64,000 nt of DNA from Escherichia coli (GCF_016026235.1 NZ_CP065613.1), one strand, 5' to 3'; positions 1-12,022 are shown, counted from the stretch's first letter. A program made the numbers and translations. Notes: generated by a model from the sequence alone, not told the origin.

Positions 1-966
1 CATACCTTTGATTCTTTCCCATGAGCGGGAGGTGAATGTTTTTTCCAGCAAATCAGCTTTTGCGCGTTTGGCGTCGTTACTGGTGCCCCCATGGTGCTTG
101 TTGAGCAACTCGATAATTTCATCAAGTGCGATTTCTTTTGCACGCTTTTCTTTTAGCCATGTCGGTGTACCGTCGTTGGCAAATAATTCACTGTTATCCC
201 GTGAGGTATCGATGCCGAGGTGTTCACCTCCCAGGTTAAGAAACTCGATATGAGGAAGAAAGTTTTTAAATGTTGGGTTTGAAAATACCTGTCCATCAAT
301 ACGGGTGGAGCGATCTTTTAGTATTCTGGCGGTGCGCCACACCTGACCGGTTTCTATGTTCATTTGCTTCTCCATCTGGATCAGGATGGAGGGTTCATAA
401 CCGGTTTCTGTTTCTGCTTTCATTTTTATACCGGTTTTTGCCAACTGGCGTTTGCCATCATCACCTTCGAAAAAGTCATACTCATATCCTGCACGCCCGC
501 ACATAATAATGTGCGCCTGACTGTTAACAAATCGATCGGTAAAGCGTCGCCACTCCTGTTTGAGCCACGCCCAGTCTGAAAATTCCAGTCCTCGTTTACG
601 GTTTCGGCGTCTGGCATACTCGTCGCATAATCCGGTCCAGAAGTGACTGATGGAGTCGATGATCATTACGGAACCGCTGCTTTCCGCTTCATTAATGGCT
701 TCAAGCAGATCAACAAACGAGCGGGTTTTTGCCGTAAATAATTCGATATTTTCCGCATCAAAGCGGGGTTTAACCCAGTCAGAGCCTGTTTCTGTGTCCA
801 GAAACATTACCGGGCGGTTACCAGCTTCAATTCCCCGTTGCCGCATAAGCATTACCAGACCAATAGCCAGTTCGCTTGCTGTGTAGGTTTTGCCGTCGCC
901 AGCAAACCCCATAATTCCTGCTTTTAGATAGGCCTGTGTGTTTATTGCTCGTTGAAAAAGCGCCAT
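1..966 (-). CDS. P-loop ATPase, phage recombination/replication-associated (3' end outside window)
   Basis: Minus-strand ORF from ATG at 966 running off the left edge; own translation shows Walker A GFAGDGKT and Walker B-like VMIIDSIS; start abuts the stop of the Gam-like gene. Confidence 0.6.
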   Translation of the reverse strand, partial: MALFQRAINTQAYLKAGIMGFAGDGKTYTASELAIGLVMLMRQRGIEAGNRPVMFLDTETGSDWVKPRFDAENIELFTAKTRSFVDLLEAINEAESSGSVMIIDSISHFWTGLCDEYARRRNRKRGLEFSDWAWLKQEWRRFTDRFVNSQAHIIMCGRAGYEYDFFEGDDGKRQLAKTGIKMKAETETGYEPSILIQMEKQMNIETGQVWRTARILKDRSTRIDGQVFSNPTFKNFLPHIEFLNLGGEHLGIDTSRDNSELFANDGTPTWLKEKRAKEIALDEIIELLNKHHGGTSNDAKRAKADLLEKTFTSRSWERIKGM

Positions 967-971
967 AGATT

Positions 972-1271
972 TTAGTCCTCCAAATCAATATCAACCTGGT
1001 GGTGGGCAATGGTTTCAGCCATGTACCGGATGTGTTCTGCCATGCGCTCCTGAAACTCAACATCATCATCAAATGCGTGGCTGATTGCCTGTTTATTGGC
1101 ACCGTGGCGTTGCAAATGGTCGATGCAGAGCGATTCAAACAGGTGCTGAGGCAGACCTTTTTCCAGGTCGTCCGCCAGTTCCGTTTCTTTTTCTTCACGA
1201 ACGATCTGCTGGTAGTGGCGAGCCCATGCCATTTCTTCAATACGATCAAAAATCGGGTAAGCGCTCATCAC
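972..1271 (-). CDS. gam: Gam-like host-nuclease (RecBCD) inhibitor
   Basis: 99 aa; strongly resembles lambda Gam C-terminal region ([17 protein letters not shown]...[17 protein letters not shown]) from memory; paralog of the 56348..56644 gene. Confidence 0.85.
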
Positions 1272-3204
1272 TGGTCACTCCAAAATTTTCAAGCTTGTTG
1301 GCAATCATCATTGCGATGTCAGGGATTGCAGGCGCATAGGCTATGCACGCAGGATTCGCACATAAACCGTAAACCGCCGCAATCAACACCTGTTTTTTCC
1401 AGTTGAGTTCATCTTCGCCAGTTTCATTATTGCTATCATTATGCTGATCGCTGCCAGCGTTCTCCGGTAACAAATCATCAGCTTTTTCCGTTTTCTTCGG
1501 CTCTTCTTCCTGTGCTTCATCTGGTTTTTTTTCGTCAAAAGTTTCCTGATAAGTTGCGTCTCCCATCACCGCGCCACAGTCAGGGCAGTTATCCTCGCCA
1601 GTCTGATTGCAGGGTGTTCCCTCCTCCGGTTCGCTGTTCTGGTGCTGTTTATCTTCAGTCTGTCGCACTTCATTTTCCGTTTTTTTGACTTCATTTGAGG
1701 AGATATGATGACCGGGAATCCATTTCGGATCATTCGGGTCGCTAATCCCTTCAACAAATTCTCCGCGAGAGGCAGCCAGTAATTTGTCTGCATCGACAGG
1801 ATTTTTGGGCGGAATGTTTTTCCGGGCTTCATGGAGTTCTGCCCGCAGTTCCTGATATTTCGCATCAACAGCATTTACCTGTGACTGAGCATCCAGCGGC
1901 TGCGTGTCCTGATGATGTTCAGTTGCATCCGGTTCCACTGTTTCAGCCGTTGCCTGTTCATCTGCCATTGCGCAAGATGGTTGCGGTTTTTCTTCATCAT
2001 CCTGTTTTCCTTCTTCTGTTACTCGCTGCGGCATCGGGGCAGAGGAGCGACCGCAGGCAATATCCACGATTTCCGGATCAGGGTTGGCATGATCGGTTTC
2101 AGTCAGTACTTTGTTCAGATATTCAGTGACGTGTGCGGGGATGACCTCGATCCCAATTGGTGCTTCTTTCACGGACGCAACCACGATGGCGCGGGAATAA
2201 TCCAGCCCGCCAGGCATGGTGATGAATTTGTCGCGGAAAACAGAAAAGGGTGGTTTATTTTCAGCGATAATTTCCTCAATGCGTTTAGCGTGTGCCGGAT
2301 GAAGGTTATAGATGTCCACGTCCATTGAACGGGCCAGTACGCCAGTGGCTACATCGCGCGTCAGTGACGTCAGATCGTGGACGAAACCTTCGCCGCGATC
2401 GGTGAGGTTCCCGCCGCCAGCATTAGCACCGGAAGTCGTGCGAGTGATGCGTGAAACACGATTCCCTTTTCGCCATTCTTTTGTCAGAAGACCGCGATCA
2501 ATGTGTTCGGTATCCAGCCAGGCTGAAATGAAATTCTTAAATTCATAGGGCTGATGTTTTTTCGTGATAGAGAAAACTGCCTTAATTGCATCAGTCAGGC
2601 GGAGCAGGGCGGCATTATCCAGAGTTGTCGGTTCTGCCATGCCGCGTATGGCCAACAGCAGATTCTGGACATAGCTGTTTTCCTGATCCATCTCAAGAGC
2701 AGTAATGTGTTTGCGTTGTTCACGGGTGGCATGATGCAGGTATTTCCGATCCCCGGCAGCATACGTAAAAATGTGCAGAAGACGCTGTGTGAACCGCAAA
2801 GTGGCTACAGAGACTTCGCAATCCTGGCAATCCTCGTGGGCGTCTGCCTGCGCGTTTTCTTCCTGGCCTCCCGCCAGTTCTTTGGTTTCTTGAGCATTAT
2901 CCTGGTGGTGAACGTCGTCTGGCGCTGCTCCCGGTTTTAGTTCCCATGTCATGGAGTCTTTGCTGAGTTGATAGCGTTCACTCCAGGTAAAATCGATCTC
3001 ACCTTCAGGGGGAAGGTCATTAACGACAGGAAAATTTGTGGCAACAGCTTTAAAATAGTTGCTCAGTTTTTTACCTGACTTAACGAGCAGATAGTCCAGA
3101 GTGGTGCTGGTCGATTCAAAATCGTCGCTTGCCCACAGGACGACGTCAGGTTCACCGGATGATTTTTTCGCTTTCCGTAACAGGAAGAGTGGTTTTGTGC
3201 TCAT
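1246..3204 (-). CDS. Large acidic hypothetical protein of the early-left operon
   Basis: 652 aa ORF; D/E/Q-rich low-complexity segments; Cys pairs CQDCE and CPDCG; family not recognised. Confidence 0.5.
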
Positions 3205-7204: not shown

Positions 7205-7624
7205 TGTAACGCTGCGAGCGTTACAAGGTGAAAACAAATGGCTTCAAACTGGATAAAGCTCGAGGTTATTACGCCGGATAAGCCGGAAATATTCAGGCTT
7301 GCTGAGATTCTGAATATTGATCCAGATGCCGCATTAGGGAAGGTTATTCGCTTCTGGGCATGGGCGGATCAACAAATGATAGACGGTAATGCAGATTGTA
7401 ACGCTCGCGGCGTTACAAAAAGTGCAATAGATCGCATCACTTTTATGTCTGGTTTTGCTGATGCGTTAATTCAGGTTGGATGGCTGGTCGAAAATGACGG
7501 TGGGCTTTCTCTACCTAACTTTGAACGTCATAACGGAAAAAGCTCTAAAAAACGGGCGGTTACAAACGAGCGAGTAACAAAAATACGCGAACTGAAACGA
7601 AAAGGTAACGCTGCCAGCGTTACA
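7205..7624. repeat. Four copies of a ~21-bp palindromic iteron (TGTAACGCTnnnAGCGTTACA)
   Basis: Copies at 7205-7225, 7397-7417, 7558-7579 (variant), 7604-7624, in and just upstream of the replication gene. Confidence 0.55.
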
Positions 7625-8026
7625 CAAACGGATCAAAAAGCGTTACCAGAGGAAGAGGAAGAGGAAGATCTAAATACTGATCTCCCCCTAAATCCCCCTC
7701 GCCAAAAACGAGCGTCTAAAAAATTCGAGCCGGAGGCTATTGAGCTGCCCGATTGGTTGCCGGAAACACTCTGGCATGAGTGGGTCCGGTTCAGACAGGC
7801 ATTGCGAAAACCGATTCGAACGGAGCAGGGCGCTAACGGGGCGATACGGGAACTGGAAAAATTCCGTCAGCAGGGTTTTACACCTGAGCAGGTGATTCGA
7901 CACAGCATCGCCAATGAATACCAGGGCCTGTTCGCGCCGAAAGGTGTTCGGCCTGAGACGTTGCTCCGACAGGTTAACACCGTCTCGTTGCCGGACAGTG
8001 CGATCCCGCCAGGCTTCAGGGGGTAA
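7238..8026 (+). CDS. Replication initiator (O-like/YdaU-like)
   Basis: 262 aa; acidic linker EEEEEED; iterons embedded; followed by DnaC-like loader. Confidence 0.6.
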   Translation: MASNWIKLEVITPDKPEIFRLAEILNIDPDAALGKVIRFWAWADQQMIDGNADCNARGVTKSAIDRITFMSGFADALIQVGWLVENDGGLSLPNFERHNGKSSKKRAVTNERVTKIRELKRKGNAASVTQTDQKALPEEEEEEDLNTDLPLNPPRQKRASKKFEPEAIELPDWLPETLWHEWVRFRQALRKPIRTEQGANGAIRELEKFRQQGFTPEQVIRHSIANEYQGLFAPKGVRPETLLRQVNTVSLPDSAIPPGFRG

Positions 8027-8032
8027 CGGACC

Positions 8033-8779
8033 ATGAAAAATATTGCGACAGGCGGCGTTCTGGAACGCATCCGCCGACTGACCCCGCCACATGTAACCGC
8101 CCCATTCAGAACGGTAGCGGAGTGGCGCGAGTGGCAACTTGCTGAAGGCCAGAAACGTAGCGAGGAGATCAACCGCCTGAATCGCCAGTTGCGGGTGGAA
8201 AAAATTCTGAATCGCTCAGGCATCCAGCCGTTGCACCGTAAATGCTCGTTTGCGAATTACCAGGTGCAGAACGACGGCCAGCGATACGCGTTAAGCCAGG
8301 CGAAATCCATCGCCGATGAACTGATGACCGGGTGTACAAATTTTGCGTTCAGCGGAAAACCTGGTACCGGGAAGAATCACTTAGCGGCAGCTATCGGGAA
8401 TCGCCTGCTGAAAGACGGTCAGACAGTGATTGTGGTTACCGTGGCTGATGTTATGAGCGCCCTGCACGCCAGCTATGACGACGGGCAGTCAGGCGAAAAA
8501 TTTTTGCGGGAGCTGTGCGAAGTGGATCTGCTGGTTCTTGATGAAATTGGCATTCAGCGCGAGACGAAAAACGAGCAGGTGGTGCTGCACCAGATTGTTG
8601 ATCGCCGGACAGCGTCGATGCGCAGCGTGGGGATGCTGACAAACCTGAACTATGAGGTGATGAAAACATTGCTCGGCGAGCGGGTGATGGATCGCATGGT
8701 CATGAACGGCGGGCGCTGGGTGAATTTTAACTGGGAGAGCTGGCGTCCGAATGTTAGCCATTCGAGGGTTGTTAAGTAG
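8033..8779 (+). CDS. DnaC-like helicase loader ATPase
   Basis: 248 aa; Walker A GKPGTGKNHLAAAIG and Walker B LLVLDEIG. Confidence 0.8.
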   Translation: MKNIATGGVLERIRRLTPPHVTAPFRTVAEWREWQLAEGQKRSEEINRLNRQLRVEKILNRSGIQPLHRKCSFANYQVQNDGQRYALSQAKSIADELMTGCTNFAFSGKPGTGKNHLAAAIGNRLLKDGQTVIVVTVADVMSALHASYDDGQSGEKFLRELCEVDLLVLDEIGIQRETKNEQVVLHQIVDRRTASMRSVGMLTNLNYEVMKTLLGERVMDRMVMNGGRWVNFNWESWRPNVSHSRVVK

Positions 8780-8793
8780 TTTCAGGAGGATTT

Positions 8794-9216
8794 ATGGCGA
8801 AACCTTTTACTCCCGAACAGCGGGAAGAACTGAAGACGCGAATTGTGGAACTCGTGCATCAGGACGGTCGGGTCACGATTCGGCAGTTGTCAGATGAAAC
8901 AGGTATCAGTCGTGCGTCTGTCGGTCGCTTATGCATGGAACTGGTCGCAAGTGGTGATGTATATAATTCTGGCTACGGCTTATTCCCGTCTGAACAGGCT
9001 CGCAAGGACTGGCAAAGCGCCCGCAAAAAACTCTCGAGAGTAAAGGTGAGGAAACCGGTTGTTGTTGATCCGGACCTTATCTGGTCATTACCTGACGGAG
9101 AAATACGCCGCTACGACAGGCGCCTGAATATAATCTGTCGCGAGTGCCGGAAGAGCGAAGCTATGCAGCGTGTACTGGCTTTCTATCAGGGTAATTTTCA
9201 GGAGGCGATACTGTGA
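8794..9216 (+). CDS. Hypothetical protein, possible HTH
   Basis: 140 aa ORF with AGGAG-like SD. Confidence 0.5.
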   Translation: MAKPFTPEQREELKTRIVELVHQDGRVTIRQLSDETGISRASVGRLCMELVASGDVYNSGYGLFPSEQARKDWQSARKKLSRVKVRKPVVVDPDLIWSLPDGEIRRYDRRLNIICRECRKSEAMQRVLAFYQGNFQEAIL

Positions 9217-11096: not shown

Positions 11097-11384
11097 ATGA
11101 AAATCGAAGAATTGCGTGAAATTTTTAGTGAAAATGGCCTCTATGCTGTGCGCGTTGAGAATGGAGCGATTGTCAGCCATTGCCGCATTAGATGTTTGCA
11201 ATCTCAACAAAGGAAGAGCGGTGCTGTGTTATTTTATTTTTGTAATGGACTTCTGACGGACGGTTTTATTTTGCGTGAGGACGAATTTGTCACATCATTA
11301 CGGGTTTTGAAAGAGATTGGTTTTAAGGCTGGTTTTCTGCTTTTGCTGAAGAATAAACTCATCTACAATCTTGAGCAGGATTGA
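11097..11384 (+). CDS. Hypothetical protein
   Basis: 95 aa ORF. Confidence 0.4.
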   Translation: MKIEELREIFSENGLYAVRVENGAIVSHCRIRCLQSQQRKSGAVLFYFCNGLLTDGFILREDEFVTSLRVLKEIGFKAGFLLLLKNKLIYNLEQD

Positions 11385-11422
11385 ACTCCTGCTGTGTAAC
11401 ACCGTGCCACCGGAGAAAGCCG

Positions 11423-12022
11423 ATGGCACATATACAACTGGTCAAACAAACCTCTTCCGGATTACTTCTCCCGGCGACGCCGGAGAGTTGCGATTTTCTG
11501 CATCAAATCAAAATAGGTGAGTGGATACACGCAGACTTTAAGCGTGTGCGTAACTACGCATTCCACAAGCGTTTTTTCAAACTCCTGCAACTGGGTTTCG
11601 ATTACTGGACTCCGGTCGGTGGGGCGATCACGCCTCGCGAACGAAAACTGGTGTCCGGTTTCGTTGATTACCTGTGTGAATCAGTAGGCCGGGAACATAC
11701 GCCAGCTCTGAGCGAAGCCGCAGAGCAATATCTGAATACAGTTGCGACACGCAGAACCCGTGATACGGCATTGCTAAAGTCGTTTGAGGCTTTCCGCGAG
11801 TGGGTAGCCATTCAGGCCGGATTTTACACCGAGCATTTTTATCCGGACGGTAGCCGTGGGTGTCGGGCGAAATCTATCGCGTTTGCGAATATGGACGAAA
11901 CCGAGTTTCAGCAGGTTTATAAATCTGTACTGAATGTGCTGTGGAACTGGATTCTGTTCCGTAAATTTTCCTCTCCGGAACAAGTCGAAAATGTGGCCGC
12001 GCAGCTGCTGGAGTTTGCGTAA
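11423..12022 (+). CDS. nin-region protein (DUF1367-like, tentative)
   Basis: ORF 11381..12022 with start placed at Met 11423; stop overlaps next start (ATGA-type). Confidence 0.45.
   Translation: MAHIQLVKQTSSGLLLPATPESCDFLHQIKIGEWIHADFKRVRNYAFHKRFFKLLQLGFDYWTPVGGAITPRERKLVSGFVDYLCESVGREHTPALSEAAEQYLNTVATRRTRDTALLKSFEAFREWVAIQAGFYTEHFYPDGSRGCRAKSIAFANMDETEFQQVYKSVLNVLWNWILFRKFSSPEQVENVAAQLLEFA

Follow-up and report, generated by a model that had tools for sequence, protein, structure and literature searches.

Alternative recombination modules around a common gam gene in two neighbouring prophages, and a probable Sak4-like ATPase in one of them

A phage that encodes the RecBCD inhibitor Gam is expected to have a recombinase as well, since Bobay et al. 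2013 (PMC3784561) encountered no RecBCD inhibitor without a recombinase among lambdoid phages. Among the recombinases of temperate phages, Sak4 is an ATP-dependent annealase that is stimulated by the neighbouring single-stranded DNA-binding protein, SSB (Hutinet et al. 2018, PMC5928155). The family, delimited by Lopes et al. 2010 (PMC2896510) as core-only RecA-like proteins of <290 residues with an HHsearch probability >90%, comprises proteins with ATP-dependent annealing from phi31 (lactococcal), PA73 (Pseudomonas), HK620 (E. coli, HkaL) and 80alpha (S. aureus, ORF016). The recombination (Rec) modules of 325 lambdoid phages were surveyed by Zheng et al. 2025 (PMC12315714), who list a Rad51/RecA-type annealing protein class and describe phage phiES15 as a rare phage combining a Rec module with many Chi sites. 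Here we analyse a stretch of 64,000 nucleotides of an Escherichia coli genome (GCF_016026235.1, NZ_CP065613.1), referred to below as the window, in which two lambdoid prophages carry in their early-left operons alternative Rec modules around a common gam cassette. The right prophage carries lambda Red, and the left one combines gam with a P-loop ATPase and with a RecE protein from which the nuclease domain is missing. Judged by its context and its fold, this ATPase is probably a recombinase that has a Sak4-like RecA core and one further domain.

Two modules around one gam cassette

An earlier note on this DNA had described two prophages with distinct recombination modules, a Gam-like protein paired with a P-loop ATPase on the left and the classical exo-bet-gam trio on the right. 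This description is borne out in full by the family matches to Gam and AAA_24 in the left prophage and to YqaJ, Bet and Gam in the right one, by the host segment that lies between the two, and by a lambda-type integrase at att-lambda (Table 1). The gene sets downstream of the common gam differ: a YqaJ exonuclease and a Red-beta/RecT annealing protein, which together identify lambda Red when they stand beside gam, occur in the right prophage only, and family searches downstream of the left gam found neither Bet nor Exo, their slot being occupied by the ATPase. In a sister prophage, the ATPase is followed only by DUF1187, xis (xisR) and int (intR). What the earlier description of the left module had overlooked is a gene directly upstream of gam, here called recE', which overlaps gam by 23 nt (the list of open reading frames, ORFs, places the gam start at a GTG at 1271). 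The left module is thus recE (N-terminal part only)-gam-ATPase, a three-gene and translationally coupled operon, and the nuclease-less RecE belongs to the same module as gam and the ATPase. In both prophages the gam stop is separated from the next ATG by a 5-nt spacer, with the downstream Shine-Dalgarno sequence lying within the last gam codons (GGAGGA at the left junction), so that the module ends exactly where the gene ends.

The RecE' protein covers positions 1-596 of the 877 positions of the NF007259 model, with a score of 872 that stays below the cutoff of 1269, and is 87% identical to residues 1-609 of the 1048-residue RecE of Rac-SA53, where the alignment ends. By both comparisons, the C-terminal PD-(D/E)XK exonuclease domain of RecE was not found in the 652-aa ORF. 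In its place stands a hydrophobic tail of ~45 aa (window 1246-1400, minus strand), which is absent from Rac RecE. The same tail also ends gp06 of Shigella phage 75/02 Stx (L012:3537-5585, minus strand), a protein that is 54% identical overall and is encoded directly before gam, and because the tail is common to both proteins, we regard RecE' as a maintained form and not as a random truncation. Nuclease-less 'RecE-2' proteins are noted among lambdoid phages by Zheng et al. 2025 (PMC12315714), and the RecE' of the window corresponds to this type.

Both Gam proteins have the full length of GamS and align end to end with the lambda Gam structures (PDB 5MBV and 2UUZ; E 2.5e-50 for the left one), with scores of 186.8 bits (left) and 216.7 bits (right) against a Pfam PF06064 cutoff of 25, and the right Gam is identical to lambda GamS (PDB 5MBV) at 96/98 residues. 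Compared with each other they are identical at 80/97 positions (82%). The 18 differences in 98 residues are distributed as 7 in residues 2-14, 4 in 22-35, 4 in 58-64, 1 at residue 84 and 2 at 96-98, such that the expected conserved core with divergent termini is seen clearly at the N-terminus and weakly at the C-terminus, with an additional variable patch in the interior. Since the N-terminal helix of GamS plugs the single-stranded DNA (ssDNA) channel of RecB, where Gam binds and inhibits RecBCD (PMC5218532), the variation includes the most intimate part of the RecB interface. A long form of Gam is excluded for the left gene by an in-frame stop codon just upstream of it. The left Gam most likely inhibits RecBCD as lambda Gam does. 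The possibility that the left gam was recently copied from the right one was rejected on the grounds of a nucleotide identity of 87%, and because the left Gam shares N58, S63, A84 and an L-E-D ending with the Gam of a Salmonella prophage that carries the ATPase, unlike the right Gam.

Fold, family and gene context of the ATPase

The 322 aa of the ATPase that are encoded in the window include the Walker A sequence GFAGDGKT and match Pfam AAA_24 (PF13479) with 52.9 bits (E 5e-14) at a gathering threshold of 27, a family of which the Sak4 of HK620 is also a member (30.0 bits). They are 100% identical to residues 1-322 of the 365-aa RefSeq protein WP_001173292.1 ('AAA family ATPase', E. coli and Shigella), from which it can be seen that a C-terminal helical domain lies partly, and a YDENIPV tail wholly, beyond the edge of the window. 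An AlphaFold2 model built from 32 homologues has a mean predicted confidence (pLDDT) of 83.7, and the helical domain (residues ~230-345, pLDDT 87) is conserved throughout the family alignment, which consists of the 150 best of 500 cluster representatives. When the profile of this family was compared with the PDB sequences, the best match was the core of archaeal RadA, with which the GxxGxGKT (Walker A), DTE and hhhDS motifs align, all of them invariant in the family; a Pfam search for extra domains in the longer family members gave nothing informative. The family is large, with 500 clusters (at 50% identity) that match the ATPase at E < 1e-30, and homologues in Pseudomonas, Achromobacter, Roseateles and other non-enteric Proteobacteria are 60-75% identical to it. 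In PHROGs it falls in phrog_1366 ('unknown function'), and residues 9-167 give a partial match to the 'Sak4-like' phrog_124 (E 8e-9). The question of whether the ATPase is Sak4-like or something else, which the earlier note had proposed as a check, is thereby resolved to a RecA/Rad51-core AAA_24 protein that is related to, and distinct from, canonical Sak4: it possesses the RecA/Rad51 core with Walker A and B motifs, but with 365 aa and an extra helical domain it exceeds the core-only architecture of <290 residues.

The genomic neighbourhood of the ATPase was studied in a sample of 80 IMG/VR loci (47 enteric and 33 non-enteric), considering neighbours within 6 kb. Bet, RecT, Exo, the RecE nuclease and an HK620-type Sak4 are absent from all 80, so that the ATPase holds the recombinase slot in place of the Rad52-type annealing proteins, as Sak4 does. 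Gam ends <=60 nt upstream of the ATPase in 42/47 enteric loci, and 11 enteric loci have RecE' as well. Among the 30 non-enteric loci that have a downstream ORF, a canonical SSB (PF00436) follows the ATPase directly in 6, and in prophages of the Achromobacter type the ATPase stop abuts the SSB start at 9122/9122 (L003:9122-9583, L004:9122-9577, L005:9122-9583), reproducing the Sak4-SSB gene pairing described for HK620. The ATPase is always found in the early-left region, between the immunity region and int, and the integrase, where seen, follows downstream after a few genes. The same patterns recur in individual prophages of Salmonella, Achromobacter and Pseudomonas. Among 50,697 deposited phage genomes, the sole full-length close homologue of the ATPase is found in Cronobacter phage phiES15, which is inducible by ultraviolet light and viable, and whose Rec slot consists only of gam and the ATPase (kil-gam-ATPase-...-xis-int).

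SSB docks its partner proteins through its C-terminal tip. The full-length ATPase (L001:8869-9966, minus strand) ends in an acidic tail, YDENIPV-COOH, at residues 358-365, and all intact enteric copies end in [YF]-D-E-x-I-P-x-COOH, which resembles the tip of E. coli SSB, DDDIPF (PMC5928155). A looser version of the motif occurs in 44/190 members of the ATPase family, compared to 5.3 in shuffled tails. This similarity in sequence suggests that the tail may interact with the SSB network of the host. The idea that the tail makes up for a missing SSB gene was not retained, since the 33 non-enteric loci, examined for whether it occurs only where no SSB gene is adjacent, gave no clear complementary pattern.

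Proposed role of the left module and competing explanations

The left Gam would most likely block RecBCD, as in lambda, and the ATPase most likely serves as an ATP-dependent ssDNA-binding and annealing recombinase of the phage, a Sak4 analogue that fills the slot held elsewhere by Bet, RecT or Erf. Resection would then have to come from host nucleases, because the left prophage encodes no phage exonuclease, a solution that has been proposed for P22 and HK620 as well. In the right prophage, a classical lambda Red system, Gam blocks RecBCD, Exo resects the 5' ends and Bet anneals. What the analysis itself establishes are the identities of the genes, the class of fold, the structure of the operon, the statistics of gene context and the borders of the mosaic; RecBCD inhibition by the left Gam, a recombinase activity of the ATPase and a reliance on host resection are inferred. 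A family that is abundant and highly conserved, and whose annotation has not gone beyond 'AAA family ATPase' or 'unknown function', is thereby given a probable role, that of recombinase in a Gam-linked module. If this is true, Gam and one ATPase would constitute a compact two-gene system for the recombineering toolbox, and the Sak4/Rad51-paralogue story would be extended to a form with an extra domain. One could go further and speculate that the long-form, 365-aa RecA-core ATPase of phrog_1366 represents a distinct and widespread class of phage recombinase, with a Sak4-like core, a new C-terminal domain and, in enteric members, an SSB-tip-like tail that plugs into the host SSB network, an extension that we consider rather unlikely as a whole. 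Under it, the tail would recruit RecJ/RecQ for resection or PriA for restart, and the plugging of the tail into the SSB network, if true, would explain how two-gene Gam-ATPase modules can do without a phage exonuclease and a phage SSB, and also how they can be at home in Chi-rich genomes.

Several points weigh against a Sak4-like recombinase. Many RecA/Rad51 paralogues are mediators or regulators, not annealases, and no experiments on the ATPase family were found in the literature searched. Searches with the ATPase against the PDB sequences, NCBIfam and PADLOC returned no matches, which leaves a known defence system, or any named family beyond AAA_24, unsupported, and the PHROGs label mentioned above offers no function. 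Pairwise BLAST against the Sak4 of HK620 is not significant (E 0.11), and in a profile-profile comparison, for which an HK620-type profile only was used, hhalign related the ATPase family to the HK620 Sak4 family with a probability of 67.4% (E 5e-5, 125 columns), short of the >90% used to delimit Sak4. On account of its length, the 67% hhalign match, the non-significant BLAST comparison and its assignment to phrog_1366, we did not file the ATPase as a Sak4 member in the strict sense, and call it Sak4-like in its working only. In addition, no SSB accompanies the ATPase in any of the 47 enteric loci, nor near the module in the window or in the sister prophage.

A further point on the same side is that the left prophage is rich in Chi, which is atypical for RecBCD-inhibiting, Gam-encoding lambdoid phages. 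The left prophage has 8 copies of the Chi sequence GCTGGTGG on its plus strand, along which the late genes are read, and 0 on its minus strand, where ~2.2 and 0.7 are expected, and no Chi lies within 12 kb of the left gam module. The corresponding counts are 13/4 for phiES15 and 3/1 in 44 kb for the Rac-site prophage of CFSAN029787, whose module is 98.6% identical to that of the window. Given this last prophage, a general rule that ties Chi richness to the module was rejected; Chi richness tracks the lineage of the late region, and not the module. The pattern fits the 'recent module acquisition' explanation given by Zheng et al. 2025 (PMC12315714).

It is possible, though unlikely, that the ATPase is instead a non-annealing RecA/Rad51 paralogue that influences recombination or repair in the host. 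It could be a mediator of RecA or work against one, take part in branch migration, or serve as an adaptor whose tail recruits or titrates SSB-binding proteins, with Gam merely protecting DNA ends. The closest structural matches of the ATPase do include the non-catalytic RAD51D, XRCC3, XRCC2 and RAD51C, its extra conserved C-terminal domain is of unknown fold, and the SSB-tip-like ending [YF]-D-E-x-I-P-x-COOH would suit an adaptor of this kind, as the Chi-rich late regions of the left prophage and phiES15 would suit a continued use of RecBCD and RecA. What speaks for a recombinase over such a paralogue is that the ATPase sits in the exact slot of the annealing proteins and never occurs together with them in 80 loci, and that its adjacency to SSB in some lineages parallels Sak4; the argument from Chi is countered by the identical-module prophage with 3/1 in 44 kb, which shows that the module does not bring Chi richness with it. 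We consider it quite improbable that the whole left module is a decaying remnant, in which a Rac-type recE-recT pair was broken by illegitimate recombination to leave a recE pseudogene with passengers in a cryptic prophage. RefSeq does label the recE of sister genomes as 'incomplete; missing C-terminus', the host is Shigella-like and rich in insertion sequence (IS) elements, and the neighbouring right prophage has itself received an IS110 insertion, yet none of the three ORFs is disrupted and their translation is coupled, the ATPase does not vary among strains (100% identity) and keeps 60-75% identity in non-enteric Proteobacteria, and the RecE' tail is kept in the 54%-identical protein of Shigella phage 75/02 Stx. 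Moreover, gam and the ATPase make up the entire Rec slot of the inducible phiES15, and the occurrence of a 98.6%-identical module in a different prophage backbone indicates a spread as a functional unit.

The earlier note had named a replication helicase as the finding that would overturn a recombination function, and a role of the ATPase as the replication protein of the left prophage, either helicase or helicase loader, is highly improbable. The gene of the ATPase is part of the pL operon, where it stands between gam and xis/int and outside the replication module, and since the left prophage has its own replication module at 7238-8779, with O-like and DnaC-like genes, the gene at 1-966 is not its replication ATPase. 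The sister prophage, with its near-identical module (98.6%), likewise encodes a DnaB-type helicase of its own elsewhere. The ATPase has neither a DnaB N-terminal domain nor a primase domain, and neither its location nor its fold match is that of a hexameric replicative helicase of the DnaB type. The reading given in the earlier note is supported in this respect.

Possible exchange within gam and relation to known systems

The sole DNA match between the left and the right prophage within the window, as detected by blastn, is that of 970-1226 with 56346-56602, a patch of 257 bp at 87% identity. Aligned base by base, the homology spans from approximately codon 15 of gam to just past its stop codon, with no uninterrupted identity longer than 46 bp, and the DNA flanking the patch is 26-35% identical between the prophages, the level of random sequence. 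The two copies are direct repeats, ~55.4 kb apart, and the suggestion that they form a substrate for recombination between the prophages is plausible, given the length, identity and perfect run of the repeats and the existence of a natural hybrid arrangement. This hybrid, recE'-gam-bet-exo, is found in Shigella phage 75/02 Stx, where the 200 nt that follow gam match the right prophage at 95% identity, and where gam itself (L012:3244-3540) is of mixed type over its first ~115 nt and of the right type thereafter at 17/19 informative sites. Relative to the two copies in the window, the 75/02 Stx gam looks chimeric, consistent with an exchange of modules via a crossover inside gam. The arrangement is the one expected from such a crossover, and thus supports, indirectly, the role of gam as a recombination substrate. 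That lambdoid phages trade recombination modules in a mosaic fashion is well established, and the window provides a clean side-by-side instance of it; what is added here are the alternative modules next to each other and the reasoned placement of an otherwise unannotated ATPase family.

The host segment between the prophages, from pgl to ybhC, is kept in 5,425/5,426 complete E. coli genomes, and the nearest match is a Shigella-like strain rich in IS elements. The IpaH cargo gene of the left prophage points to a Shigella or Shigella-like host as well; this gene adjoins a DNA-invertase remnant and the host gene pgl. In the right prophage, the IS110 insertion probably disrupts the replication region, and the prophage may for this reason be defective. 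The Ash-Rha fusion gene in the early-left operon of the left prophage is also present in the sister Rac-site prophage.

Table 1 Features of the window. Positions are counted from the first base; E-values follow the family to which they refer
Feature	Position	Strand	Match or remark
P-loop ATPase (Pfam AAA_24, phrog_1366), codons 1-322 of 365	1-966	-	ATG at 966, runs past base 1
Left gam, 98 aa, GamS-length	972-1268	-	Pfam Gam PF06064, E 8e-56
RecE N-terminal-region protein (RecE'), 652 aa, without exonuclease domain	1246-3204	-	PF06630, 1e-66
exo, lambda exonuclease, YqaJ fold, right prophage	54880-55560	-	PF09588, 3e-30; phrog_149
bet, Red-beta single-strand annealing protein, right prophage	55557-56342	-	PF03837 (RecT family), 3e-33; phrog_252 Bet-like, 2e-128
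Right gam, lambda-like prophage	56348-56644	-	Pfam Gam, 4e-65
Chi sites GCTGGTGG, left prophage	12997, 15699, 17842, 18282, 23377, 24987, 26992, 32135	+	
O-like initiator, left prophage replication module	7238-8026	+	phrog_2509, 1e-89
DnaC-like helicase loader, left prophage	8033-8779	+	phrog_50, 1e-82
NinB/Orf recombination mediator, accessory recombination gene, left prophage	11381-12022	+	phrog_319, 3e-68
Fused Ash-family and Rha-family regulatory protein, 282 aa	3951-4799	-	early-left operon, left prophage
Left prophage	from beyond base 1 to ~41.4 kb		
IpaH-family type III secretion system (T3SS) effector, E3 ubiquitin ligase (LRR and NEL domains)	38760-40586	-	terminal cargo of left prophage
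Host segment pgl-ybhD-ybhH-ybhI-ybhJ-ybhC	~41.4-50.2 kb		E. coli/Shigella chromosome
Right lambdoid prophage	starts right of ybhC at att-lambda		
Lambda-type integrase, left end of right prophage, beside ybhC	50297-51367	-	Phage_integrase and lambda Arm-DNA-binding domain
IS110-family transposase	62063-63259	-	DEDD_Tnp_IS110 and Transposase_20; just past cro/cII of right prophage

Set beside the systems described so far, the right prophage is canonical lambda Red, in which Bet and Exo are ordered and spaced as in lambda. The left module has in common with lambda Red the gam gene (82% identical in amino acids, 87% in nucleotides) and an identical 5-nt stop-to-start junction, but differs from it in having one RecA-core ATPase in place of Bet and Exo, and in carrying a nuclease-less RecE upstream of gam, in the position that in lambda belongs to kil. 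A likeness to the RecE/RecT system of Rac is evident in E. coli O121 and CFSAN029787, which carry the left-type module in prophages at the Rac site (ttcA-intR-xisR-ydaC); unlike in Rac, the RecE nuclease domain and recT are replaced by the 45-aa tail, gam and the ATPase. The Shigella phages 75/02 Stx and POCJ13 share with the left module the same nuclease-less RecE with its C-terminal tail directly upstream of gam, and differ from it downstream, where they have bet-exo, 95% identical to the right prophage, and no ATPase.

With Sak4, the ATPase has in common the RecA/Rad51 core, the Walker A and B motifs, the AAA_24 family and the Rec slot of temperate phages, as well as the mutual exclusion with Rad52-type annealing proteins, an SSB neighbour in some lineages and a partner that inhibits RecBCD (Abc2 in HK620, Gam for the ATPase). 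It is unlike Sak4 in its size (365 aa, compared to ~220-245 aa), in its conserved C-terminal helical domain and acidic IP-x tail, and in that the enteric ATPase is partnered by Gam, without a phage SSB. The closest counterpart of the left module is phiES15, which has the same Gam-ATPase pair, with an ATPase that is 85% identical, and which also combines a Chi-rich late region with an absence of Chi near the Rec module; it departs from the left module in its Gam, which is 39% identical to the left Gam, and in having no RecE' gene. Judging by the text of Zheng et al. 2025 (PMC12315714) and by the matching Chi count of 13/4 in its Table 1, the phiES15 ATPase was probably counted in that survey among the Rad51/RecA-type annealing proteins. 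The kind of system to which the left module belongs is a known one, already catalogued in phiES15 with its 85%-identical ATPase and 39%-identical gam.

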